Source of the DNA: Candidatus Poribacteria bacterium WGA-3G | GTDB taxonomy: Bacteria > Poribacteria > WGA-4E > WGA-3G | Reading direction: 5' to 3' | NCBI GenBank assembly: GCA_000406005.1 | Contig: ASZN01000007.1 | Location: 937-64,936, forward strand | Length of the DNA: 64,000 bases | Shown: positions 1 to 24,732 of the stretch, in pieces | Position numbering within the stretch: position 1 is the first letter of the stretch | How the letters are laid out: each line of letters begins with the position of its first letter | Position numbers and translations under genes: made by a program | The notes under the pieces: model-generated | What the model was told of the DNA's origin: nothing | The model's database searches: none | Seen by the model: the letters and a program-made list of their open reading frames with translations, nothing else

Positions 1-2817
1 CTACAAAACCTCTTTTTTGCAACGTTGAACACAGAGATAGACAAACGGACGTTTAGCAAGGGTGGCAATTCTAATCACCGCAATTTCTCACAGTATCGCT
101 ACGAGAAGCAGATGCGCGCGCCTGATAAACTATTAGAATTTTTTGACAAAACGCCATTCATCAACGGTGGCTTGTTCGACTGTCTGGATAGCTTCAAGGC
201 AACAAAATTCGGGGGCTACCGAATAGACTGCTTTTCTGATAAACAGTACCATAAGCTATCCATCCCGAACCACCTCTTTTTTGACGCACAGCACGGATTG
301 ATCCCTTTACTTGAACACTACAAATTCACCGTTGAAGAGAACACGCCGGTAGATCAGGAGGTTGCACTGGACCCCGAGTTGCTCGGCAGAGTGTTTGAGA
401 ATCTACTCGCCGCTATCAACCCGGAAACGGGAGAAACGGCGCGCAAGATGACAGGCTCCTATTACACCCCACGCGCTATCGTAGACTATATGGTGGAGGA
501 GGCGTTGGTTGCTGCGTTATCCCAAAAGTGTCAACCGACTGATGATAATTCAGAACTTTGGGATGAACGATTGCGATACCTGTTTGACTATGCACAAATG
601 TTTGACGATGCTCACGAATGGTTTGACAACCGCGAAACGGACGCGATTGTGAAAACAATTTCTGAACTCAAGATATTGGACCCAGCTGTCGGTTCCGGAG
701 CGTTTCCGATGGGCATACTCCACAAGTTGACGTTAGCACTCCGCCGACTTGACCCTGATAACAACCGATGGGAAACATTACAAAAGGAACTTTCAGGAAA
801 ACGTGCTGCAGCGGCATTTAACACTCAAGACCAACAGGAACGCGACGCTGAACTCACCGAAATCAGCGAAACTTTTGAACGATACCGAGATTCAGACTTC
901 GGACGGAAGTTGTATCTGATACAAAATAGCATCTTCGGCGTGGATATCCAACCGATTGCGTGCCAAATCGCCAAACTCCGCTTTTTCATATCACTTGCCA
1001 TTGAGCAGGAACCGGACAGAGACGCGGAGAACTTCGGCATCAAACCCTTGCCGAATTTGGAGACACGTTTTGTCGCAGCGGATACACTGATAGGCATAGA
1101 TTTATCCGAAACAAGGGGATTGTTCCAAGATGATACCGTACAGCAATTGCTAAAAGAAATTGACGGAATTCGTGAAAAGTTTTTTCTGGCAAACAACCGA
1201 ACACAAAAACGTGAACTTGAAGAGCAAGAAGAAAATTGCCGCAAACAATTGGAGGAAGAATTGGAGCGGCAGCGAATAGAATGGATAGGGAACCGACAAC
1301 GAGAAATAGATCAAAAAGTAAACCAACTTCCCACCGCTGAACTACGTGACAAGTTGCGAGAGAAGGAACAAAAAACGTTTGAAACGCGTAAGAAAGCATT
1401 TGATTCCGAATTTGAAAATGCTCGCAAAATCGTTCGCTGGAAACCCTACGACCAGAACGCGAAGACAGATTGGTTTGATCCAGAACGGATGTTTGGCATC
1501 AACGACGGGGTTGATGTAGTAATTGGAAATCCGCCTTATGTCCAATTGCAAAAGGAAAATGGGAGACTTGGGAAACTTTATCAAAACGCAGGTTTTGAAA
1601 CCTTTGCCCGTACAGGTGATATTTACTGTTTGTTCTATGAAAAAGCGAATCAACTTTTAAAAAATAACGGACATGCCTGTTTGATTACTTCCAATAAATG
1701 GATGCGCGCTGGTTATGGTAAAAAGTTGAGGGATTATTTTGTAACGCTTACCCAACCGATTCAACTGCTGGATATGGGACCGGATGTGTTTGATGCTACT
1801 GTTGACACCAACATTTTGCTTTTCCAAAAGATTGTATCCGATGTCCCCGCTGCCTTCGTAGGCGTGTCTCTCGGAGCAGACTTTGACAGACATACCGGCA
1901 ATATTGCCCGATATCTGATTAACAATGGCTCGACGATGGAGGTGCCCGCTAAAGGGGAACCGTGGGCGATCCTTTCGTCTGCTGAACTTAACTTGAAACG
2001 CAAAATAGAGGATGCCGGTAAACCGCTTAAAGATTGGAATATAAACATCTATCGTGGAATTGTAACAGGTCGTAACGAGGCATTTATCATAGACGAATTC
2101 AAGAGAGAAGAACTTATAGATCAAGACCCAAAGTCAACAGAAATCATCAAACCACTTCTGCGAGGAAAAGACATTAAACGCTACCGTGCCCAATGGGCAG
2201 GATTGTATTTGATAGGCACTTTTCCTGTGCTGAATTTGGATATCAACGACTATCCTGCAGTCAAAAATTATCTCATAGAATTTGGTAAAGATCGCTTGGA
2301 ACAATCGGGAAAAACACTTACCAATGGAACTAAATCTCGGAAGAAAAGTAAAAATAAATGGTTTGAAACACAAGATCAAATTGCTTACTACGCCGAATTC
2401 AATAATGAAAAGATCGTTTATCCGGAAACAACACATTCCGCAAATTTTTTCTATGACAAAAACCAATTTTATTTAGACAAAACCTGTTTTATGATTACAG
2501 GGAGCGATCTAAAAATCTTGGTGGGATTGCTCAGTTCTACATTGATGACCTTTGCTTATAAACGGTACTGTAGTGGGACTGTGCTGGGCGTAAAAGGGTA
2601 TCAGTATAACAAACACGCTTTAGAGAAACTTCCTGTCGCCAAAATTTCCGCCTCACAACAGCAATCTTTTATCACCTTAGTTGATCAGATTCTTGATGCT
2701 AAGAAAGCCGATCTCAACGCAGACACTTCCTCCCTTGAAAATGAGATTGACCAACTGGTCTATGAATTGTATAATTTAACGGAAGATGAGATTGCGATTG
2801 TGGAGGGGAATGTCTGA
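1..2817 (+). CDS. Eco57I/PglX-like N6-adenine DNA methyltransferase (type IIG RM or BREX-type), 5' partial
   Basis: Frame is open from nt 1, with no stop before the TTG at 25. Motifs seen: YYTPRAIVDYMV, motif I ILDPAVGSGAFP, motif IV VVIGNPPYV, and a TaqI-like C-terminal specificity region (YRGIVTGRNEAFII). A charged coiled-coil-like insert sits between motifs I and IV. Confidence 0.8.
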   Translation, partial: LQNLFFATLNTEIDKRTFSKGGNSNHRNFSQYRYEKQMRAPDKLLEFFDKTPFINGGLFDCLDSFKATKFGGYRIDCFSDKQYHKLSIPNHLFFDAQHGLIPLLEHYKFTVEENTPVDQEVALDPELLGRVFENLLAAINPETGETARKMTGSYYTPRAIVDYMVEEALVAALSQKCQPTDDNSELWDERLRYLFDYAQMFDDAHEWFDNRETDAIVKTISELKILDPAVGSGAFPMGILHKLTLALRRLDPDNNRWETLQKELSGKRAAAAFNTQDQQERDAELTEISETFERYRDSDFGRKLYLIQNSIFGVDIQPIACQIAKLRFFISLAIEQEPDRDAENFGIKPLPNLETRFVAADTLIGIDLSETRGLFQDDTVQQLLKEIDGIREKFFLANNRTQKRELEEQEENCRKQLEEELERQRIEWIGNRQREIDQKVNQLPTAELRDKLREKEQKTFETRKKAFDSEFENARKIVRWKPYDQNAKTDWFDPERMFGINDGVDVVIGNPPYVQLQKENGRLGKLYQNAGFETFARTGDIYCLFYEKANQLLKNNGHACLITSNKWMRAGYGKKLRDYFVTLTQPIQLLDMGPDVFDATVDTNILLFQKIVSDVPAAFVGVSLGADFDRHTGNIARYLINNGSTMEVPAKGEPWAILSSAELNLKRKIEDAGKPLKDWNINIYRGIVTGRNEAFIIDEFKREELIDQDPKSTEIIKPLLRGKDIKRYRAQWAGLYLIGTFPVLNLDINDYPAVKNYLIEFGKDRLEQSGKTLTNGTKSRKKSKNKWFETQDQIAYYAEFNNEKIVYPETTHSANFFYDKNQFYLDKTCFMITGSDLKILVGLLSSTLMTFAYKRYCSGTVLGVKGYQYNKHALEKLPVAKISASQQQSFITLVDQILDAKKADLNADTSSLENEIDQLVYELYNLTEDEIAIVEGNV

Positions 2818-4867: not shown

Positions 4868-6250
4868 ATGACAGAACGCCTACATGAAATGCGAGACCCG
4901 ATTCACGGGTTTATCAAACTTTCCAAAAAAGAGAAGAAACTGATTGACACCCAAGTGTTTCAGCGGCTTCGTCGAATTCGGCAACTGGCACTGACATCTT
5001 TGGTGTATCCGGGGGCTGTGCATACCCGATTTGACCATTCTATCGGTGTGATGCACGTTGCGGGCCGAATTTGCCAGAGGCTTCAGGAATTAAATCCATC
5101 AAAAATATGCGATGAAGACATAGATCGGGTTCGGCTTGCCGCATTGCTTCATGATGTCGGGCACGGCCCCTTTAGTCATGTTTCCGAGCATCTTTTGAAA
5201 AAGTACGCACCAGCAGATGCCGATACAGGACAGGTTCTCGAAAAAATACACGAGAAGATCACAGTAGATATTATCCGGAGCGATCCACAAATCAAAAACA
5301 TTCTAAAAAATGATTGCGAGTTCGTGATTGACATGATTCAAGGGAAACCGACGCGGGACTGGCAGCGTGACATCGTTTCCAGTGAATTAGACGCGGATAA
5401 AATGGACTATCTTTTACGCGATTCGTATTTTGCCGGTGTCAAATATGGTGAGTACGATCTGGAAAAACTGATTGAATCTTGCCGTATTGCGGACCGTCGA
5501 GAAACCCCTCTCGCAATTGGTAGCAAAGGAATTTACGCTCTTGAACAACTCCTATTAGCGAGGTATCACATGACACAGCAAGTCTATTGGCACCGAGTAA
5601 GTCTCATTTCCAATGAGATGATTGTTCGCGGTATTACCCTTGCAATTGATGGGCGTAACACAAAAATGGGCAAACTTTATAAATACCCTAAAAAAAACAA
5701 GAGAACCTCCGATGAGGATTACGAAAAAAAGAAAAAAGATTTCGTTCAAAACTACCTAAACTATCATGATGAAAAGGTGATTGACCTTTTGAGGAATTGC
5801 AAGCAAGAGAAAGCCCGAGAAATTTTCAATCAGATTTATAATCGGGAACTTTACAAAATGATTGCCGAGATTCGATTCAAGGACGAAAGGGATGAAATGG
5901 TTCGGACTGGTCTCCGAGGAGTGATAGCGGATCCAGATCGGAAACGCCAATGTGAAGAGAACATTGCGGCACATATAGACATTGATCCTGATTATGTGAT
6001 TGTCAATAAACCGCCAATCCGGAATCTGAATTACGTCAGTCAGACCGAGACCCCGAATCTGGAAGCGATTATGGTTTTCGACGAAAAGCAAGATTTACTT
6101 ATGTCTCTACCAGCGTACGCAGGTGAACTATTTTTTGTCAGGCACTCCGCTGACACCTCTGCTTTAGAAACTATCCAAGTTTATGCCCCACATAAAAATG
6201 ATTCAAAAAAAGAGAAAAGCGAAATCCAAAACATTTTGCGTTCCTCATGA
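4868..6250 (+). CDS. HD-domain phosphohydrolase, SAMHD1/EF1143-like (COG1078, putative dNTP triphosphohydrolase)
   Basis: RFDHSIGV, LLHDVGHGPFSH and DADKMDYLLRDSYFAGV form the H..HD..D metal-binding signature of this family. Confidence 0.8.
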   Translation: MTERLHEMRDPIHGFIKLSKKEKKLIDTQVFQRLRRIRQLALTSLVYPGAVHTRFDHSIGVMHVAGRICQRLQELNPSKICDEDIDRVRLAALLHDVGHGPFSHVSEHLLKKYAPADADTGQVLEKIHEKITVDIIRSDPQIKNILKNDCEFVIDMIQGKPTRDWQRDIVSSELDADKMDYLLRDSYFAGVKYGEYDLEKLIESCRIADRRETPLAIGSKGIYALEQLLLARYHMTQQVYWHRVSLISNEMIVRGITLAIDGRNTKMGKLYKYPKKNKRTSDEDYEKKKKDFVQNYLNYHDEKVIDLLRNCKQEKAREIFNQIYNRELYKMIAEIRFKDERDEMVRTGLRGVIADPDRKRQCEENIAAHIDIDPDYVIVNKPPIRNLNYVSQTETPNLEAIMVFDEKQDLLMSLPAYAGELFFVRHSADTSALETIQVYAPHKNDSKKEKSEIQNILRSS

Positions 6251-10614: not shown

Positions 10615-11844
10615 CTATACAATAGACGAACGCGCTTGTATTATTGCCCACGCGAATGTGCTATCAATCTCAAATTTCGGTTCTGGGTGCCCTGACTCCG
10701 CCAATAACCTTCTCGCGATTGGTATACCCATACCAAAACGCTGTACAAAACCGAAAGTGCGCATCGCATCCGCTAAATTAGGGTTGCGATAATCAACATA
10801 CCCCGGCTCACCAAAATTTTCAGCCGTTACCGTACCAAATACACCACCAGGGCTCAAAACTTCAATCCGGTCATTATACCAATAAACACGAACCGGTGCA
10901 TTCGTCGCTTCGTAAGCCCGGTGCATAATTGCGTTTCGGGTAATCTGTTGCACCGCTTCTATCGGGTAAAGTGCCGTCCGCTTTTCGATAGGACCAGATG
11001 TAATGTCAACCGCAATACGATTATGTGCTATTAATTTATCGTCTAAGCGGCGGATCTGATCCGGAATCGCGCCACGGATAGCCAGACTGTCAATAATATC
11101 ATCCGTAAGTTCATTCCCATCAATTCTGAGGAATTGTATATAAGCACCCGGCAGAAAGTCTTGCGGATTCTTTCCAATCGTGAGGATTCCAAGTACAGTA
11201 GCAGTCGCATCATCAACAGCAGTAATCATTTTCGTTGCTGCGAGTTGCTCCTCCAAACTCCGATCATTGGCTTCCAGGACCTCCTCAGAAAAGGCTTTAG
11301 GTAGATAGTCATAACTGAATAGCGCGAGATTAAGGTCTGAAAGGCCTGCCCTCGAAATCGGGTACAAATCAAAGGGTCGATCCCCATATCGTCGTTTTTC
11401 GTTGAGCATCCGTTCATCTTGTGCCGTTGCAATACCTCGACGTGGGCCTATTCGGATATGAATCGCGCCTCTGCATCGGACCGGCGGCGAATTGGAGGGT
11501 TGCACTGCGACGACAGCAATTTCATTGCCGTGCAGTATCCGCCTTTCCACTGTTAATGATGGCGGGGGCAGGATATTCCCATCCGTCTTCATGTCCGCCA
11601 ATTGACGGAGCAATTCATCTGTGATTGGTGTAGTGCCGAGAGTTGCATTGTCTCTGACTCCGAAAAAAATAAGTCCGACTTCCCCACGGTCGCGTAGATC
11701 GTTGGCAAAAGCACAAATCGCCTCTCGAACCTTTTCTGGAGCACTACCAGACAGGGACTCTTTGAACTCAACAGCGTCAGATTCCCCAGTTTTAATGATT
11801 TGCAGTAGTTCTTCGTCTGTTAAATTCGACATCAGAATATCCAC
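10615..11844 (-). CDS. AlbA_2 (Schlafen-like) plus HATPase_c_4 domain protein (annotated in databases as putative transcriptional regulator / RecG-like)
   Basis: TGESDAVEFKESL...EAICAFANDL...GLIFFGV forms the AlbA_2 core. The C-terminal half has RNAIMHRAYE...GFVQRFGMGI. Confidence 0.65.
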   Translation of the reverse strand: MDILMSNLTDEELLQIIKTGESDAVEFKESLSGSAPEKVREAICAFANDLRDRGEVGLIFFGVRDNATLGTTPITDELLRQLADMKTDGNILPPPSLTVERRILHGNEIAVVAVQPSNSPPVRCRGAIHIRIGPRRGIATAQDERMLNEKRRYGDRPFDLYPISRAGLSDLNLALFSYDYLPKAFSEEVLEANDRSLEEQLAATKMITAVDDATATVLGILTIGKNPQDFLPGAYIQFLRIDGNELTDDIIDSLAIRGAIPDQIRRLDDKLIAHNRIAVDITSGPIEKRTALYPIEAVQQITRNAIMHRAYEATNAPVRVYWYNDRIEVLSPGGVFGTVTAENFGEPGYVDYRNPNLADAMRTFGFVQRFGMGIPIARRLLAESGHPEPKFEIDSTFAWAIIQARSSIV

Positions 11845-18019: not shown

Positions 18020-21000
18020 ATGACAACCCAATGGAACAAAGACGAAACTAGGAATCGTGTTCTCACTGAAAACACGGCACAAGCCGTTTCCAAGTATCTG
18101 ACCGATCAGGAGTCGAATCGTGCAACGTGGCAAAATCGATGGATATGGGAACTTTTACAGAATGCGCGTGATGCTTCAAAAACAAGCACTAACCGCCTCA
18201 TCGTAAAAATTCAATACAATTCGGAAGAACTCGTCTTTTTACACAACGGAGGCGGATTCACACCTGAACAGATAACCCATCTCATTTATCACGGATCAAC
18301 GAAAGTTGAGGATGAAGAAACAATAGGAAAATACGGCAGCGGCTTTTTGACAACACACCTGTTGTCTCCAGAAGTGGTTATCTCGGGTCAGCTCCACAAT
18401 GGTCAATGGTTTGACTTCCCTTTGGTACGTAAACTACGTAAACCTGATTCAGTAACTGCACTTCGTGAGTCAATGGACGAAGCCTGGGAAAATTTCAGTC
18501 CATCTATAGCACCGCAAGTCCCAATGCCGGAAGGCTTTACCACTCGATTCGTATATCCAATCAAGGAAGATAACGCGGCGAATGCAGTGAAGAGTGGAAT
18601 TGCAACGCTGAAACAATGCGCGCCGTACGTAGTTGTCTTCAATCAGGAATTCTCCAGCATCAACATTGAAGACCATCACGAAACTATTTGTTTTGAAGCC
18701 ATTGAACCTTTGCAGATGGAGGTCTCAGAAATCCAGCAAATCATAGTGACAGAAAAAACGAATGGAAATAATACAGAAATGAAATATCTTCTGGCACAAG
18801 GTGAAAAGGCTTCTGTCACAGTTCCTCTAACATCAAGTGACAACAGTTTAGTATGTCTACCAATTGAGAATATACCAAGACTCTTTTTGGGTTTTCCTTT
18901 GGTGGGCACCGAAGACTTCAGCTTTCCCGCTGTTATCCATAGCTTAGATTTTACGCCAACGGAGAACCGCAATGGTGTGTATCTTTGGCAAAGCGACAAC
19001 GAAGCAAACCGTAACAATCAAGCTGTGATTGAAGAAGCCTGCGCTTTGCTTGTTAGGATCTTAGCGTTTGTGGCAAAGTCTGGTTGGTGTAATGTGCATC
19101 GATTAGTGGAAATTCCTCCTATCCAAGAAAAGGATTGGCTGAAGAATATAGAACAGCTTAGGAACTGTCTAAAATCAAAATTCATTGACGAAATCTGTCC
19201 AACACCTGCGGTTATTACTGCTGTTGGAACTCTCTTAGCCCCCCAAAATGCTATATTTCTTCAAGCGAAAAGTGAGGCAGACATAGAGACTTTGTGGAAA
19301 TTATTGGAGAGCCTTGAGGAAAAACGTGAGCAATTGCCTAAACAAGATGAAGCAATAGGATGGTGTCGCGCCATTCAGAGCTGGACAAATGTATCTGAAC
19401 ACGTCCGACCAATGTTAAGGAATGGTGGGAGCCTGGCATCGTTTGTAGAAGAAAAGAGTAAATATACCCAAGGGCACAACGCAGGATGGGGCCATCTTGA
19501 GAATCTGCAGAAATTGCTCCGTCCAGATGTTTGTGCTGTCGAATGGTTGAATCAATTCTATCAATTTCTGATAGACAACGGATTTGATAATGAAATTCGT
19601 ACCCGTCGCTTTGTTCCTGATCAAGTGGGCTTTTTTCGTCAACTGAATGAGACATCCCGTGATACGGACATAGACGAAGACCTGAAAAACGTTGCCGAGT
19701 TGTTGGGGGACTTTATCCGGCAGAGGCTACGGGATACCCGCCTTACTCCCTTAGTTCAAGAAGTCGGCGCGGGAAATATGAATAACGAATCTGTTGTTTC
19801 GGATATTATTAGCCGGATCCGAAAACGTGCCGACGAGAAGCCAGACGACTCCTTCAAGGAAGCAAGTGGCCGCCTATTCGCGTGGATAGTTAATAGAGAA
19901 GCCTACTTCCACTTACTAAATTTTCCTGTGTTTGTGGAAGATGGTAAATCTGGCAGTCCTCTTGTGTTTTACCTACCGAATGCTACACATAATACCCCTT
20001 TCTCGTCGTTGCTGTTGGCACCCGTTCGCGCATGGCCGGAAGACTTGCAACCGTTCAAAGATCTTTTTCCGCCGAACAGCATCTTGGCAGATGCGTTTTT
20101 TGAAGCAGCGTCTAACCGAGACACATGGCAAATCCTCAGTGATCAACGACTTGTTAATATGGCAATCCGGTACCGGTACACGGATAAAAAACAAGTGAAT
20201 CTCAAAGAGTTTTCTCCAGATGTAGATCGTGATGAAGGTACCCACATTGCTTTTGTTGACCGCGTGACAGATGTTGTAAAACGCTCTGAAATTATGAGCA
20301 GAGTCAGTGATAGTCGAGAACGAGCCTTCCTATTCTGGAGATTTCTCACCGAGTGGCTTATTCAAAAAGATGTCCACGCGTTAGAACCTAGAGAAGTAAT
20401 TTGTGAATGCGGAGGAACTCATAAATACTATCCAGAGGCCTGGGTGATGCCGGTGCGAAATAATAGTTGGATTCTATGTGAGGGAAAACGCCGTGTCCGT
20501 GCGACAGCTGAGTCGCTTGCGAGTCTGCTTCGCGATAACGGATGGCAACCGGATTCTCTACATCAGAATCCTGCTGTCGTCAACCTATTGGATGCAATTG
20601 GTGTGACACGGTTTGACTTGATGCGGGAATTTGTAACGGTGGGCAATGAAGAAGCACGTAGAGTGCAAGAGAATGTCCTCACAGAGATAATAGTTAAGGC
20701 TGGAGGTAACTTGAGTCAAATCAGTGCGTTGGTGCAGGACCTGAAAGAGGATGAAAATCTCTTTCAACATCTTGAAGAACGACGGGAACAGAGACGGATC
20801 GTGAGTGAGAACCAACACTTGGGGCAACAAGTCGAAGAATTGGTGAAGACGAACTTGGAGAAAGAAGGTTTCTCAGTTCGTCGTACTGGAACGGGTTCGG
20901 ACTTTGAAATTTCAGATAATACTGATAATATGATAACACTGGATATAGAACGAGATAGCAAAAATTGGTTGGTTGAAGTGAAATCTACGCGAACTCAAAG

Positions 21001-21331
21001 CGTTAATATGACTCTCACGCAAGCAAAAACCGCTGTGGGTAAGGGGGACGAATTCTTACTTTGTATTGTCCCAATAGAACAAGGAAATGGTGAACCAGAT
21101 TTAGAAACTGTGCGAGAGGAAATGAGATTCGTTAAAAATATTGGACTTCGTGTGGCTCCGTTGTGCCAAAATCTCAACGCGTTAGAAGAATTGCAGACTA
21201 ACATCACTAGCGAAACCCTCTCTGGTATCAAATTGTTAATTAAGGCGGGTGTAGCAAGAATTAATGTCAATCATTCTGTATGGGAAACTGAAGGATTCCC
21301 ACTCGAAAATCTCGCTGCACGTCTTAAGTAA
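18020..21331 (+). CDS. GHKL (sacsin/HSP90-like) ATPase with C-terminal restriction-endonuclease-like (DUF3883/NOV-C-like) domain
   Basis: N-box WELLQNARDAS, G1 LHNGGGF and G2 GKYGSGFLTTH at the N-terminus. The C-terminus has GSDFEISD...LDIERDSKNWLVEVKSTR, a D..E.K nuclease-like signature. Confidence 0.65.
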   Translation: MTTQWNKDETRNRVLTENTAQAVSKYLTDQESNRATWQNRWIWELLQNARDASKTSTNRLIVKIQYNSEELVFLHNGGGFTPEQITHLIYHGSTKVEDEETIGKYGSGFLTTHLLSPEVVISGQLHNGQWFDFPLVRKLRKPDSVTALRESMDEAWENFSPSIAPQVPMPEGFTTRFVYPIKEDNAANAVKSGIATLKQCAPYVVVFNQEFSSINIEDHHETICFEAIEPLQMEVSEIQQIIVTEKTNGNNTEMKYLLAQGEKASVTVPLTSSDNSLVCLPIENIPRLFLGFPLVGTEDFSFPAVIHSLDFTPTENRNGVYLWQSDNEANRNNQAVIEEACALLVRILAFVAKSGWCNVHRLVEIPPIQEKDWLKNIEQLRNCLKSKFIDEICPTPAVITAVGTLLAPQNAIFLQAKSEADIETLWKLLESLEEKREQLPKQDEAIGWCRAIQSWTNVSEHVRPMLRNGGSLASFVEEKSKYTQGHNAGWGHLENLQKLLRPDVCAVEWLNQFYQFLIDNGFDNEIRTRRFVPDQVGFFRQLNETSRDTDIDEDLKNVAELLGDFIRQRLRDTRLTPLVQEVGAGNMNNESVVSDIISRIRKRADEKPDDSFKEASGRLFAWIVNREAYFHLLNFPVFVEDGKSGSPLVFYLPNATHNTPFSSLLLAPVRAWPEDLQPFKDLFPPNSILADAFFEAASNRDTWQILSDQRLVNMAIRYRYTDKKQVNLKEFSPDVDRDEGTHIAFVDRVTDVVKRSEIMSRVSDSRERAFLFWRFLTEWLIQKDVHALEPREVICECGGTHKYYPEAWVMPVRNNSWILCEGKRRVRATAESLASLLRDNGWQPDSLHQNPAVVNLLDAIGVTRFDLMREFVTVGNEEARRVQENVLTEIIVKAGGNLSQISALVQDLKEDENLFQHLEERREQRRIVSENQHLGQQVEELVKTNLEKEGFSVRRTGTGSDFEISDNTDNMITLDIERDSKNWLVEVKSTRTQSVNMTLTQAKTAVGKGDEFLLCIVPIEQGNGEPDLETVREEMRFVKNIGLRVAPLCQNLNALEELQTNITSETLSGIKLLIKAGVARINVNHSVWETEGFPLENLAARLK

Positions 21332-21411
21332 AAAATCACTTACCCACAAAGAAATCGCAATTGTGGCGGGGAGTGTCTGAATCGCTCAGAACATTAGGTC
21401 AAAAATTTTAC

Positions 21412-21433
21412 GCAATAAGTAGATTTGGGATGC
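21412..21433. repeat. left arm of a 22-bp perfect inverted repeat CGCAATAAGTAGATTTGGGATG
   Basis: Exact reverse complement of 22173-22194. Similarity continues imperfectly outward (AAAATTT). Confidence 0.85.
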
Positions 21434-21671
21434 AGAAAAATCTTTGTGGTCGTTGCTTCCCGTTGATTGATTGTTTGCTTGTTTAGATGTAGGGCAGCTT
21501 TGTTTTGAAGTTCTCTACTGCCCTACGCTAATCAATTGTTGTATAGTTGGTAATGAAACGCAGATTTGCGTAGATTTTACCGTGTAACCGAGTGAGATCG
21601 GATAACTACACAACTGAAACTATGCGTCCCCAAAAACGCATAATAACCCAAATAATAATTTGGAGGTTATA

Positions 21672-21971
21672 ATGAAAGAAGTTCGTCCTACAGGATTAAT
21701 CTCTGATGGTATTGCGCTAATGCAAAAAGGGCATCTAACGTCAGCATCCGCTATCTTTAATAAAGCAATCGCACTGAATGAATACCCCCTATGTGCTCAT
21801 CTTCTTGATGCTATCTGCGAAATTTTGTCCATATCTGAATCTACATCAGACGAATTATCATCAGTGATTTTAGGCGGATCAATACACAAAGTAGATAGAG
21901 TGTTAGCCAAAATGCGAGACAAACTGGATGATATTGAAGCAGAATTAGAAGCATCTAAATCTGAAATTTAA
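21672..21971 (+). CDS. small helical protein with one TPR-like motif
   Basis: GGAGG lies 5 nt upstream of the ATG at 21672. GIALMQKGHLTSASAIFNKAIALNE is TPR-like. Confidence 0.45.
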   Translation: MKEVRPTGLISDGIALMQKGHLTSASAIFNKAIALNEYPLCAHLLDAICEILSISESTSDELSSVILGGSIHKVDRVLAKMRDKLDDIEAELEASKSEI

Positions 21972-21972
21972 C

Positions 21973-22001
21973 TTGGCAATCTAACCGAAATATGCTATAA
22001 T
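21973..22001 (+). promoter_or_regulatory. promoter-like TTGGCA-17-TATAAT
   Basis: Exact 17-nt spacer. The -10 box ends 3 nt before the long stem at 22004. Confidence 0.5.
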
Positions 22002-22003
22002 AT

Positions 22004-22117
22004 AAATGCCGTTGAATACTCTTGTGTGGTTGGATTTGGTATTAGCGCGGGCTCCAAACTCGTTGCTATAGGGTTCAACTCCCTACCAATCCATAGAAGT
22101 ATTCAACGGCATTTTTA
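22004..22117 (+). ncRNA. candidate about 110-nt structured RNA with tRNA-like core (T-arm GGGTTCAACTCCC, anticodon-like loop CUCCAAA)
   Basis: A 17-bp closing stem AAATGCCGTTGAATACT / AGTATTCAACGGCATTT is followed by a T-run. An inner stem TGGATTTGG / CCAATCCA abuts the TAGGG-TTCAACT-CCCTA arm. Confidence 0.45.
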
Positions 22118-22172
22118 TCGTAAAAACGATCATAAAAATAACAAAAAATTGTCCGAAAAACAAAAAATCTGA

Positions 22173-22194
22173 CATCCCAAATCTACTTATTGCG
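22173..22194. repeat. right arm of the 22-bp perfect inverted repeat
   Basis: CATCCCAAATCTACTTATTGCG is the reverse complement of 21412-21433. Confidence 0.85.
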
Positions 22195-22340
22195 AAATTT
22201 TATACACTGGATTCCTAAGGTTTAGCTGGCATCTGTTCACCAAATATGTTATGATTAACCTCAAAGAATCCACATCATTCGCGATTCAAACGATCATGAG
22301 GCTTCAGCGGAAAAAAAGTTATCGCTATGGAGAAAAGTTA

Positions 22341-24248
22341 ATGAGCAAACCGTTAAAAGTCTTCATTACCTACGCCCACAAAAATGCGGAAGCAAAGGAC
22401 AAATTGATAACCCACCTTGCTGTCCTGAAGCAAAACGGATTAATTGATGTCTGGCATGACAACGAAATTCTACCGGGAGACAAGTGGCGGGAGGCAATTT
22501 TTAACAATCTTGCCGATTCAGATATTCTGCTCTACCTTACTTGTCCTTACAGTCTTGCTTCTGAAAACTGTAATAAGGAGTTGACTGCTGCGTTACGTCC
22601 AAATATAAGAATAATTCCGATTATCCTTGAACACTGCGATTGGCAAAATCATCAACTCAGCGATTTTCAAGCACTTCCTGAAAAAGGCAAGCCAATCTAC
22701 GATATTAGCGAATGGAACCCTGAGAACAAAGGGTGGATGAGTGTGGTTGAGAGACTCCGAAAAGTGATAGAAAGAATGCAGTCCCAGGCGGATTCATCAT
22801 CTGCTACGTTAGAGAAGGAATTGCGTGCTGAGTTGGCATTCCAACAAGGCAACATTTTTATGATGTTCGGACAACTGGATATGGCAATAGGAGCATACTC
22901 ACATGTAATTGAAATTAATCCGCGCGATGTAGATGCCTACATCAATCGTGGAGCTGCTTATCAAGACAAAAACAACTTTGATTTTGCTATCCAAGATTTC
23001 ACCACTGCTATACAACTAAAACCTGATTATGCAATTGTCTATTACAATTTCGGTGTTATCTATGGTAAAAAAGGCGAGGTTGACAAAGCCATTGAAAACT
23101 ACAATAAGACAATAAAGCTCAATCCTAATTTTGCAGTGGCTTATAGTAATCGTGGCAACGCTTACGCAAATAAAGGTGAAGCAGAGAATGCCATGAAAGA
23201 CTATAATAAAGCGATTAAACTCAATCCATACCTTGCCGAGGTTTATTATAATCGAGGCATTGCTAATGAAGAGAATGGCAAGATTGAACTTGCTGTAAAG
23301 GACTATACCACAGCAATACAACTTAAACATAATTATGCCGCAGCGTATTGCAATCGTGGTGTTGCTTACGGAAAAATAAACAAGAATGACCTTGCTATTA
23401 CCGACTATAGTATGGCGATACAACTTGAACCTGACAAGGCAAAAACATATAATAATCGAGGGAACGCTTACTACAGAAAAGGCGAGATTGATAAAGCCAT
23501 TGAAGACTATAACGAAGCAATAAGCAAGGACCCAGAGTTTACCGATGCTTATAATAGTCGTGGTGTTATTTTTAGTATCAAAGGTGAAGTTGATAGAGCC
23601 ATCAAAGATTATAATAAAGCGATACAGATCAACCCCGATTATGCAAAAGCATATTGCAATCGTGGAAACGCTTATAGTGAAAAAGGCTACCATAACCGTG
23701 TTATTGAAGACTATAGCAGAGCAATTGAGTTAAATCCTAATTTCGCCGAGGCGTATTGCAATCGAGGTCACACTTATGTCTATAAAGGTGAAATTGACAA
23801 AGCCATTGAAGACTATAATACGACAATAAAACTGAGACTAAGTGATCATAAAGCATATAATGGCCGTGGTAATGCTTACCGCTGCAAAGGTGAAATTGAC
23901 AAAGCCATTGAAGACTATAACGCAGCGATAAAATTGAACTCTGATTTTAGCGAAGCCTACAGCAATCGCGGCATCACTCTCAGCATCAAAGGTGAACATG
24001 ACCTTGCTATCCAAGACTTTAGCAAAGTGATACAACTACAACCACAGTCTGCTCACGCCTATTACAATCGAGGCGCGACATGGTTATTTCTAAGAGAATG
24101 GGAGAAAGCTATGGCTGACTTGACTATTGCCCGAGATAGAGGGGTAGATATCACCACTAACTTTCGTAAGACAAGCATTGCCGACTTTGAACGGGCAATC
24201 GGTGTAAAATTACCTTCATTTATCGCTGTAATGCTTACACAACAGTAG
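22341..24248 (+). CDS. TIR-domain protein fused to a long TPR array
   Basis: KVFITYAHKN...WHDNEILPGDKWREAI...DILLYLTCPYSLASENCNKELTAAL is a TIR_2-type domain with a candidate catalytic Glu. More than 10 TPR units of the AY.NRG.AY..KGE.DKAI.DYN.AI.L.P type follow. GGAGA RBS precedes the ATG at 22341. Confidence 0.8.
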   Translation: MSKPLKVFITYAHKNAEAKDKLITHLAVLKQNGLIDVWHDNEILPGDKWREAIFNNLADSDILLYLTCPYSLASENCNKELTAALRPNIRIIPIILEHCDWQNHQLSDFQALPEKGKPIYDISEWNPENKGWMSVVERLRKVIERMQSQADSSSATLEKELRAELAFQQGNIFMMFGQLDMAIGAYSHVIEINPRDVDAYINRGAAYQDKNNFDFAIQDFTTAIQLKPDYAIVYYNFGVIYGKKGEVDKAIENYNKTIKLNPNFAVAYSNRGNAYANKGEAENAMKDYNKAIKLNPYLAEVYYNRGIANEENGKIELAVKDYTTAIQLKHNYAAAYCNRGVAYGKINKNDLAITDYSMAIQLEPDKAKTYNNRGNAYYRKGEIDKAIEDYNEAISKDPEFTDAYNSRGVIFSIKGEVDRAIKDYNKAIQINPDYAKAYCNRGNAYSEKGYHNRVIEDYSRAIELNPNFAEAYCNRGHTYVYKGEIDKAIEDYNTTIKLRLSDHKAYNGRGNAYRCKGEIDKAIEDYNAAIKLNSDFSEAYSNRGITLSIKGEHDLAIQDFSKVIQLQPQSAHAYYNRGATWLFLREWEKAMADLTIARDRGVDITTNFRKTSIADFERAIGVKLPSFIAVMLTQQ

Positions 24249-24267: not shown

Positions 24268-24732
24268 ATGAAAAAATGGCCCGCCTTTGATAATGATGGT
24301 GACTTACCCGTAGGAATTCATCAAGCAACATTGGCTGAAACTTTACAGCATTTCGGTGCAGGGACCCCGCAAAGAAAACGCGTTGGGCAGCAATTAGAAC
24401 ACATTTTCAAATTGGCAAACAGCACCGGCCAAGTGGCAAGATTTATCGTGTTTGGTTCATTTGTAACAATTAAACCAGCCCCCGGTGACGTAGATATTTT
24501 CTTATTGATGAATGATACGTTTGATGTTGATCAGGTGGATGGTGAAGCTGCTCTCATTTTTGATCATCAAAAAGCACAGAATATTTTAGGAGCAAGCGTT
24601 TTCTGGAGCCGCAAACTTGCAGCAATAGGCGGCGAGCAGGGAGCAGTGGAGTATTGGCAGGTTAAACGCGACAACACACGCCGCGGCATAGTTGAGGTGA
24701 TTAACAATGATTCAGAACAATCAAGAACTTAA
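24268..24732 (+). CDS. minimal nucleotidyltransferase-fold (Pol-beta-like) protein
   Basis: FIVFGSFVTIKPAPGDVDIFLL carries the GS-x(n)-DxD signature. Confidence 0.5.
   Translation: MKKWPAFDNDGDLPVGIHQATLAETLQHFGAGTPQRKRVGQQLEHIFKLANSTGQVARFIVFGSFVTIKPAPGDVDIFLLMNDTFDVDQVDGEAALIFDHQKAQNILGASVFWSRKLAAIGGEQGAVEYWQVKRDNTRRGIVEVINNDSEQSRT

Follow-up and report, generated by a model that had tools for sequence, protein, structure and literature searches.

Genomic setting of the element

The window analysed here is a stretch of 64,000 nucleotides from Candidatus Poribacteria bacterium WGA-3G (assembly GCA_000406005.1, contig ASZN01000007.1, positions 937 to 64,936 of the forward strand), in which positions are counted from the first letter. 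Between a full-length TmtA gene (Tiamat; PADLOC E = 9e-239) on the upstream side and, downstream, a ThsB-like TIR-TPR gene followed by a gene for a DUF6932 nucleotidyltransferase lies a unit of 784 bp (21411-22194). This unit is a transposase-less, non-autonomous derivative of an IS1595-family transposon of Candidatus Poribacteria, and its cargo comprises a promoter, an RNA gene with a tRNA-like core and, ahead of both, an open reading frame (ORF) of 99 amino acids. The RNA had been pointed out earlier from the letters of the DNA alone, in what is called below the sequence-only reading. Coordinates of all features are collected in Table 1.

A promoter-driven RNA gene with a tRNA-like core

The sequence-only reading had described a discrete RNA gene that extends from a promoter to a U-tract around a tRNA-like core. 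Its components were all confirmed in the sequence, namely a promoter near the consensus, a 17-bp stem free of mismatches, the T-run, a T-arm of canonical form and the CUCCAAA loop, and the gene as a whole is upheld by the promoter, the z score of the fold and the comparative structure. The -35 box occupies 21973-21978 and the -10 box 21996-22001, the latter preceded by TG. Two bases past the -10 box starts the outer stem, whose two strands, 22004-22020 and 22098-22114, are exact reverse complements of each other. When three mismatches or fewer are allowed, the outer-stem sequence has just two sites in the 64 kb, where 0.25 would be expected, and none of 100 shuffles gave two. The stem runs into TTTTT at 22112-22116, three of these T's being part of the stem itself. 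Minimum free energy of the 119-nt stretch was -49.7 kcal/mol, as compared with -25.1 +/- 3.5 kcal/mol for dinucleotide shuffles (z = -6.98), and none of 200 shuffles equalled it. No further copies of the outer stem, the T-arm or the terminal repeats were found elsewhere in the window.

The closing helix finishes with GCCGUUGAAUACU.../...AGUAUUCAACGGC and is followed by AUUUUUAU, features that one would look for in an intrinsic terminator. A simple terminator scan made no call at this helix, because the enclosed region of 77 nt exceeds the loop limit of 8 nt used by the scan.

That the RNA would not be a normal tRNA was borne out. It was missed by both Rfam and ARAGORN at their default thresholds. 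The Infernal search against Rfam, which had been suggested as a check, returned as best matches tRNA-Sec (23.8 bits, E = 0.13, gathering score 47) and mascRNA (RF01684; 23.1 bits, E = 0.14, gathering score 42.5), both of them under the gathering score. The suggested ARAGORN check gave a divided answer. In default mode nothing was called at the RNA site, the sole call in the window being a tRNA-Pro elsewhere, while a 69-nt tRNA-Trp(cca) was called in relaxed mode and a 64-nt D-loop-less mtRNA-Trp(cca) in mitochondrial mode. Furthermore, in a scan of viral contigs the T-arm 19-mer was found to be shared by genuine phage tRNAs, ordinary phage tRNAs being the sole matches, and the terminal-repeat pattern gave zero matches.

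Among canonical tRNA features, the RNA possesses a T-stem of 5 bp with a UUCRANN loop, together with an anticodon stem of the same length whose 7-nt loop includes U33 and, at position 37, a purine. It departs from the canon in the D-arm, which is merely a 2-3-bp hairpin with the 5-nt loop UNGGU (as against 3-4 bp and a loop of 7-11 nt with G18G19), and in lacking a free acceptor end: the acceptor-equivalent helix extends into the closing helix of about 28 bp, and CCA is not encoded. The core had been called D-arm-less, which holds in so far as there is no full D-arm; given that the vestigial hairpin is backed by two compensatory changes (see below), the RNA is not strictly so.

Comparative evidence for the structure

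The alignment consisted of three copies, window 22002-22120, L007 8340-8458 and L119 5343-5461, the last two from full-length relatives of the element. Promoter, outer helix, T-arm and loop are near-invariant across the three; the promoter is kept in L007 (TTGGAA-17-TATAAT) and in L119, and the tRNA-Trp-type loop CUCCAAA is unchanged in 3/3 sequences. The stems around it vary with pairing retained. The anticodon-like stem changes from GCGGG/CUCGU to UGGAU/AUCUG, by which three of its five pairs are altered on both sides and one on one side, the D-like hairpin has two compensatory pairs (A-U to C-G and U-A to G-C), and, in the closing helix, L119 has G-C at pair 29-88 where the window has U-A. 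All L119-specific changes in the outer helix (columns 5-111 and 14-102) and in the T-stem (one G-C to G·U in an otherwise invariant T-arm) lead to G·U pairs, which are tolerated in the + strand RNA only and therefore indicate an RNA of the + strand.

In the proposed structure 97.5% of cells are paired, versus 42-54% in slid controls, and six pairs are changed on both sides, values that none of 500 shuffles attained. The sequence-only reading had looked to related sequences for conservation and covariation of the inner stems, and the L007 and L119 copies supply both. RNAalifold independently gave the same four-way junction of closing helix, mini D-like hairpin (loop U-N-G-G-U), 9-bp anticodon-like arm (5+4 bp) and T-arm. 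A covariance model scored the window RNA at 143 bits on the + strand versus 43 bits on the - strand; over the 375 kb of loci that were scanned, the model (R1) recovered just the three known copies, plus weak matches to the other cassettes described below. These data point to a structure that is maintained by compensatory and G·U changes and is under selection as a structure.

The acceptor-like pairing of TGGATTTGG with CCAATCCA, as put forward in the sequence-only reading, is a possible register, and one of two in competition. In the acceptor register GGAUU(U)GG/CCAAUCC one pair is compensatory and one is broken. The register GGUUGG/CCAAUC, which prolongs the closing helix and brings in the D-like hairpin, fits the comparative data at least as well and, with that hairpin included, better. 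The two are mutually exclusive, and three sequences are too few to separate them.

The RNA is cargo of a miniature IS1595-family transposon

A TmtA search of genomes led to six Candidatus Poribacteria loci, of which L001 and L002 are the closest (TmtA 84-87% identical). In both, the 784 bp are missing from within a region that is syntenic on both sides of the gap, so that the junctions could be read directly; the flanking blastn alignments overlap by 8 bp. This octamer, AAATTTTA, is single-copy at the empty sites (about 9381-9388 in L001 and 9372-9379 in L002), and in the window it flanks the element on either side, directly outside the perfect terminal inverted repeats. An 8-bp target duplication is typical of the IS1595 family (ISfinder), and 8-bp AT-rich duplications were likewise present in four full-length relatives. 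The same terminal repeats, CATCCCRAATCTACTNNTTGCG in what we call lineage A, bound full-length elements in L007, L009, L013 and L119, and full-length relatives with these repeats encode a Zn_ribbon_IS1595 + DDE_Tnp_IS1595 transposase. The elements of L007/L008 and L119, 4.3-4.9 kb in size, contain the transposase, a few small cargo genes, the ORF and, directly after it, the same RNA. No transposase was detected in the window (tblastn with the L007 transposase, zero matches), and for this reason the window copy must have been moved in trans. Its insertion target is the AT-rich spacer between tmtA and the TIR-TPR gene. Terminal repeats, target duplication and empty sites together make the promoter, the RNA and the preceding ORF cargo of the element. 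The segment GATTTGGTAT of the RNA resembles GATTTGGGAT, the core of the terminal repeat; this likeness breaks down in L007 (5/10 positions) and was dropped as probable chance.

With TmtA upstream and a ThsB-like TIR-TPR gene downstream, the RNA might be taken for a bait, sensor or decoy belonging to one of these defence genes, a link to the TIR effector that the sequence-only reading had entertained, or for an att-site remnant of a tRNA-Trp gene left by integration. Proximity is the one point in favour of such a link. In two syntenic genomes the tmtA and TIR-TPR genes stand side by side with no RNA between them, the 784-bp unit being cleanly absent from a single 8-bp target, and the same RNA occurs in other contexts (L007 and L119). 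The RNA is absent also from L003, L004 and L006, and the T-arm motif was found in 0/6 of the TmtA-based Poribacteria loci. As for an integration scar, the RNA is internal to the terminal repeats and target duplication, it has a promoter of its own, and the empty site in L001/L002 contains no tRNA. We thus regard both ideas as having a negligible probability. It should be added, as a warning for annotation, that such RNAs are not to be read as parts of the defence genes they land beside.

Related cassettes in full-length elements

Among the approximately ten Poribacteria elements on which our estimate of prevalence rests, all five full-length elements of the lineage (L007, L009, L013, L117 and L119) hold one to three promoter-driven tRNA-like cassettes, whose sequences are unrelated to each other (Table 1). 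At the transposase-proximal end the order is terminal repeat, a spacer of about 100-150 nt, a tRNA-like RNA oriented against the transposase gene, a strong promoter, a spacer of about 170 nt and the transposase start codon. The promoters at this end follow TTGGAxA-17-TATAAT (10-11/12 positions). The third cassette of L119 is located antisense between two cargo genes of a 4.3-kb transposon and is devoid of G3·U70. The L013 cassette, found also in L014-L019, is called by ARAGORN as a tRNA-Ser(tga) with an 'intron'.

Four cassette types, those of the L007/L119 lineage and that of L117, are closed by a helix of 15-28 bp: 17 bp in L007 #1 (z = -5.4), about 24 bp in L117, 15 bp in L119 #3 (z = -5.1) and about 28 bp in the window RNA. 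In L013 the acceptor helix has a shorter extension of 9 bp, and L009 has separate flanking hairpins instead. A general trait of host tRNA genes was considered as the source of these helices and rejected, as the genuine host tRNA-Pro has a promoter and no helix (z = -0.17).

Table 1. Features of the 784-bp element and its RNA gene in the window, with tRNA-like cassettes of related elements
Feature	Position	Strand	Details
Left target-site duplication AAATTTTA	21403..21410	.	8 bp
Left terminal inverted repeat CGCAATAAGTAGATTTGGGATG	21411..21432	+	22 bp, perfect reverse complement of 22173-22194
Hairpin, homologue of the L009 leader hairpin preceding a tRNA-like RNA	21487..21530	+	stem 21489-21497/21518-21526
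Multi-hairpin leader of the small ORF	21539..21650	+	89-90% identical to L007 7717-7825
99-amino-acid all-helical ORF	21672..21971	+	TPR-like N-terminus, GGAGG Shine-Dalgarno
Sigma-70-type promoter TTGGCA-17-TATAAT	21973..22001	+	11/12 consensus positions
tRNA-like RNA	22004..22116	+	fold z, 3-sequence consensus structure, covariance model
Closing (end-sealing) helix, 5' strand	22006..22033	+	pairs with 22086-22112; RNAalifold columns 5-32 with 85-111
Vestigial D-like hairpin	22034..22042	+	stem 22034-35/22041-42, plus G·U 22033-22043; loop UUGGU
Anticodon-like arm	22043..22068	+	stem GCGGG/CUCGU, 7-nt loop CUCCAAA (22052-22058)
T-arm UAGGG-UUCAACU-CCCUA	22069..22085	+	single occurrence in the window
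Closing helix, 3' strand, and U-run	22086..22116	+	probable intrinsic terminator
Right terminal inverted repeat	22173..22194	-	22 bp
Right target-site duplication AAATTTTA	22195..22202	.	8 bp
L007 #1 / L119 #1 cassettes			Rfam tRNA 44 / 42 bits; loop CUUUUGA / CCUUUGA
L009 cassette			ARAGORN default: tRNA-Ile (GAU)
L013 cassette	2457-2555	-	Rfam tRNA 49.4 bits; UGA; 27-36-nt insertion in anticodon loop
L117 cassette			Rfam tRNA 48.8 bits; GCC
L119 #3 cassette	1860-2035	+	ARAGORN default: tRNA-Ala(tgc); promoter + 15-bp helix

Within the transposon, conservation is highest in the RNA cassettes. Between L007 and L119, RNA #1 is 97.4% and RNA #2, the window-type RNA, 95.8% identical, while the transposase coding sequence reaches 89.7%, the non-coding flanks 83-84% and the small ORF 68%. 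This pattern bears on the possibility that the cassettes are neutral relics, that is, transcription units of host tRNAs which were captured and are decaying without function. Decay would account for the span from near-canonical cassettes (ARAGORN default calls, Rfam 42-49 bits) to the degenerate window RNA (23.8 bits), for the degenerate T-loops of L007 #1 (UGCAAAU) and L117 (UCCGAUU), and for the loss of U33 in L119 #1. It does not agree with RNAs that are the most conserved segments (96-97% versus 83-90% for the rest), with compensatory changes that preserve the stems, with a conserved promoter and with a closing helix that genuine host tRNA-Pro does not have. Because of the conservation pattern we consider a neutral relic improbable.

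A serious alternative, which is compatible with a role as tRNA mimic and which we nevertheless rate as unlikely, is an insulator or terminator module, in which the strong outward promoter and the long palindromic helix would block read-through across the element end in both directions and end the ORF mRNA, the tRNA-like interior being incidental. The cassettes indeed lie at the transposase-proximal end or amid cargo genes, in every case with transposase and cargo encoded on the other strand, and the helix is near-palindromic, so that the reverse strand folds too and the covariance model still gives 30-43 bits on the - strand. In the window the ORF stop codon lies 1 nt ahead of the -35 box of the RNA, and helix and U-run could end the ORF mRNA. 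To this extent the suggestion in the sequence-only reading that the hairpin is just the terminator of the preceding ORF retains some ground; it has against it the conserved promoter of the RNA itself and an RNA far better conserved than the ORF. What an insulator leaves unexplained is the tRNA-shaped four-way junction with a canonical T-loop in every cassette, and the covariation of inner stems around fixed loops. Moreover, the antisense hairpin loses stability through the G·U changes, the U-run varies from cassette to cassette and the simple terminator scan was negative.

Soil and peat metagenomes contain more distant IS1595 relatives that combine a transposase, an N6/N4 DNA methylase and a class-II-shaped tRNA of 89-93 nt that encodes CCA, has a Thr, Ala or Ser anticodon and sits just inside the far terminal repeat. 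In L036, L041, L043, L044, L053, L055, L057, L059 and L068 the tRNA was found about 1.7-1.9 kb downstream of the transposase on the - strand; that of L068 is 75 nt long and of Asp type. The soil and peat elements measure 2.9 kb and have the terminal repeat CGGAATGGTACGCTTTTGGAC (confirmed in L041, L043 and L055); in L041 the passenger gene is the N6/N4 DNA methylase.

The small ORF and the leader of the element

The 99-amino-acid ORF has few relatives: one protein of 77% identity among 5.8 billion and, from exhaustive HMMER searching, four distant small homologues. No Pfam, PHROG or PADLOC family was assigned to it, and a look-up of the ORF itself gave no record. The AlphaFold2 (AF2) model has a predicted local distance difference test (pLDDT) value of 65, and Foldseek against the PDB gave weak TPR-like matches, all with E > 0.3 and none significant. 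The dN/dS ratio between window and L007 is 0.46. The small ORF was also the fastest-evolving part of the element (L007 8001-8309 versus L119 5001-5312; 68% nucleotide identity versus 96-97% for the RNAs), for which diversifying selection or recombination is a possible cause.

Ahead of the ORF, the hairpin at 21487-21530 is 94% identical (blastn) to L009 5786-5753. Its loop (TTTGTTTTGAAGTTCTCTA; 19 nt as UUUGUUUUGAAGUUCUCUA) is shared with L009, and the stem sequence differs. For the leader at 21539-21650 the consensus fold was obtained without covariation.

The linkage of ORF and RNA, tight in three elements and retained in the miniature derivative, would also suit a regulator acting in trans, with the CUCCAAA loop pairing to the Shine-Dalgarno region UUUGGAG and repressing translation of the ORF in an antitoxin-like or autoregulatory manner. 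All 7 positions are complementary to the loop in the window (21657-21663) and in L119, and 6 of 7 in L007. This is weak evidence, since CUCC, which is anti-Shine-Dalgarno-like, is part of every tRNA-Trp-type loop; further A/U matches come easily where DNA is AT-rich, and loop and target showed no covariation. In other cassettes the loops are unrelated and an adjacent ORF is lacking, a homologue of the ORF occurs without the RNA, and the ORF is unlike a toxin. We therefore give little credence to such regulation.

Proposed function of the RNA

The best explanation of the locus, in our estimate somewhat better than even, is that of a miniature IS1595-family transposon which carries a small TPR-like ORF and an independent gene for a sealed RNA that mimics tRNA. 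Transcription would start about 7 nt past the -10 box, near 22008, and therefore inside the helix, and would end in the U-run at 22112-22116, giving an RNA of about 105-110 nt. Its first and last 28 nt or so are predicted to pair as the closing helix, which together with the U-run would end transcription. The ends sealed in this way would be hidden from 5'-end-dependent RNases and from 3' exonucleases, and with paired ends the RNA is expected to be very stable. The same helix would bar CCA addition and aminoacylation; with the ends sealed and uncharged, the exposed part would be limited to the tRNA elbow and the anticodon loop. The preferred reading, held with moderate confidence, is accordingly worded as a stable, non-chargeable tRNA mimic that would engage a tRNA-recognising factor. 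The factor that it may bind or titrate could be an anticodon nuclease, some other toxin aimed at tRNA or an enzyme of tRNA processing. As DNA, the module may in addition insulate the transposon end from read-through.

Several points weigh against this reading of the RNA. Homologues of the window RNA number three, from two lineages, and several alternative registers were tried, so that the covariation rests on few independent events. The window RNA itself scores under the default thresholds of Rfam (RF00005 gathering score 29 bits) and ARAGORN. The U-run is good in the window and weaker or absent in other cassettes, and expression, RNA ends and processing of the window RNA are all deduced from sequence. 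A homologue of the small ORF is present without the RNA in the L120 array. In the sister lineage B (L012, L110, L112, L113 and L118), which has a different terminal repeat, tRNA-like RNA was not found, and for this reason the RNA is not required for transposition as such. The L120 array (980-1930, and likewise in L121) consists of four solo repeats in the same orientation that resemble the lineage-B terminal repeat (ATCCCAAAACGACTTA..GCG), with small ORFs between them, including the homologue of the 99-amino-acid ORF, and with no tRNA-like RNA.

A broader proposal, which we offer tentatively and consider doubtful as a whole, extends the preferred reading to the lineage. The IS1595 lineage would carry a dedicated, undescribed class of RNA genes, one to three cassettes per element, as functional mimics, with loops CCA, UUU, GAU, GCC, UGC and UGA plus insert and with ends locked by a helix in most of them. 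Such RNAs might serve as decoys or inhibitors of tRNA-targeting toxins, or as latent mis-decoding tRNAs that are freed by RNase III or RNase P, to the benefit of the transposon or of the host.

Comparison with known RNAs and wider meaning

RNA partners are established for other insertion sequence families, for instance the omega-RNA of IS200/605, the bridge RNA of IS110 and RNA-OUT of IS10; to our knowledge none is known for IS1595. RNA-OUT is a stable stem-loop antisense RNA that is transcribed outward from the transposon end and overlaps the 5' end of the transposase mRNA. The full-length relatives described here resemble this arrangement in having an outward strong promoter near the transposase-proximal end and a very stable, highly paired small RNA. 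They differ in the best candidate for a transposase promoter, which is divergent and situated between the promoter of the RNA and the ATG of the transposase; in the window copy the transposase is missing altogether. Antisense control in cis as in RNA-OUT was thus rejected, no overlap being predicted with a divergent promoter.

Phage tRNAs are known to counter tRNA-targeting defences, as T5 tRNAs do against PARIS or Retron-Eco7. Both are cases of a mobile element with its own tRNA-shaped molecules and specific anticodon loops, with the difference that phage tRNAs are functional and chargeable, whereas those described here are sealed, partly degenerate and borne by a DDE transposon. A retron msr-msd RNA was considered on account of the long terminal helix and rejected, as the neighbouring ORFs (window, L007 and L119) contain no reverse transcriptase domain.

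YrlA is reportedly a bacterial Y RNA-like molecule associated with Rsr/Ro60 (Chen et al. 2014). It shares with the window RNA a long helix of the 5' and 3' ends which bears a tRNA-like module with a T-arm. On the other hand, no Rfam match to Y RNA or YrlA was found at E <= 10, no TROVE/Ro60 gene is nearby, the window helix has no recognisable bulged Ro-binding site, and the RNA is borne by a transposon. The mascRNA/MEN-beta RNA (RF01684) is likewise small and tRNA-like, and its D region is reduced beside an acceptor/T minihelix; it is eukaryotic and arises when RNase P and RNase Z cleave a long transcript, unlike the window RNA, which has sealed ends and a promoter of its own.

Mukai et al. 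(2017, NAR, PMC5389517) reported allo-tRNA-like and irregular tRNAs beside transposon-related ORFs and toxin-antitoxin loci in Acidobacteria, and suggested non-translational roles for them. That set and the window RNA have in common that they are non-canonical tRNA-shaped genes on or near genes of mobile elements, with varied anticodons and probably outside normal decoding. An allo-tRNA has a 12-bp acceptor branch (8/4 or 9/3), a long variable arm and free, CCA-capable ends. The window RNA fails this geometry, since its T-stem is of 5 bp in 3/3 copies, no variable arm is present (0-5 nt between arms) and its ends are closed in a helix of about 28 bp. The 89-93-nt class-II-shaped tRNAs (Thr, Ala, Ser) borne by soil IS1595 elements do resemble the set, and the tRNAs of the soil and peat elements may correspond to its irregular tRNA-GGU species (Mukai et al. 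2017, PMC5389517). In the literature searched we found no publication that joins IS1595 with a tRNA-like RNA, or allo-tRNA with a transposase, and the tRNA look-alike habit of this transposon lineage is apparently undescribed. The elements provide a concrete genomic setting for the transposon-adjacent irregular tRNAs that were left unexplained in that study (Mukai et al. 2017, PMC5389517).

Insertion sequences of the DDE type are usually viewed as a transposase and two ends. Here the best-conserved parts are sealed tRNA-shaped RNAs, one of which is retained even in a miniature derivative of 784 bp. If functional, they could represent a new route by which mobile DNA engages the host tRNA machinery or tRNA-targeting immunity, the latter being abundant in defence-rich sponge symbionts.

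Further observations on the loci

The window is a defence island, with genes at 25-2817, 4868-6250, 10615-11844 (- strand), 18020-21331, 22251-24248 and 24268-24732. It holds an Eco57I/TaqI-type restriction-modification methylase, an HD-domain protein, a Schlafen AlbA_2 + HATPase_c_4 protein, TmtA, the TIR-TPR protein and the DUF6932/Pol-beta-like nucleotidyltransferase. Between window 22195-23757 and L001 9381-10943 the TIR-TPR gene is 98% identical, as compared with 90% for the adjacent tmtA, which hints that the two genomes have recently exchanged the TIR-TPR gene. It should also be added that in L012 part of a bacterial class A RNase P RNA (123 bits) lies on the - strand at 1-205, where the contig ends amid many insertion sequences.

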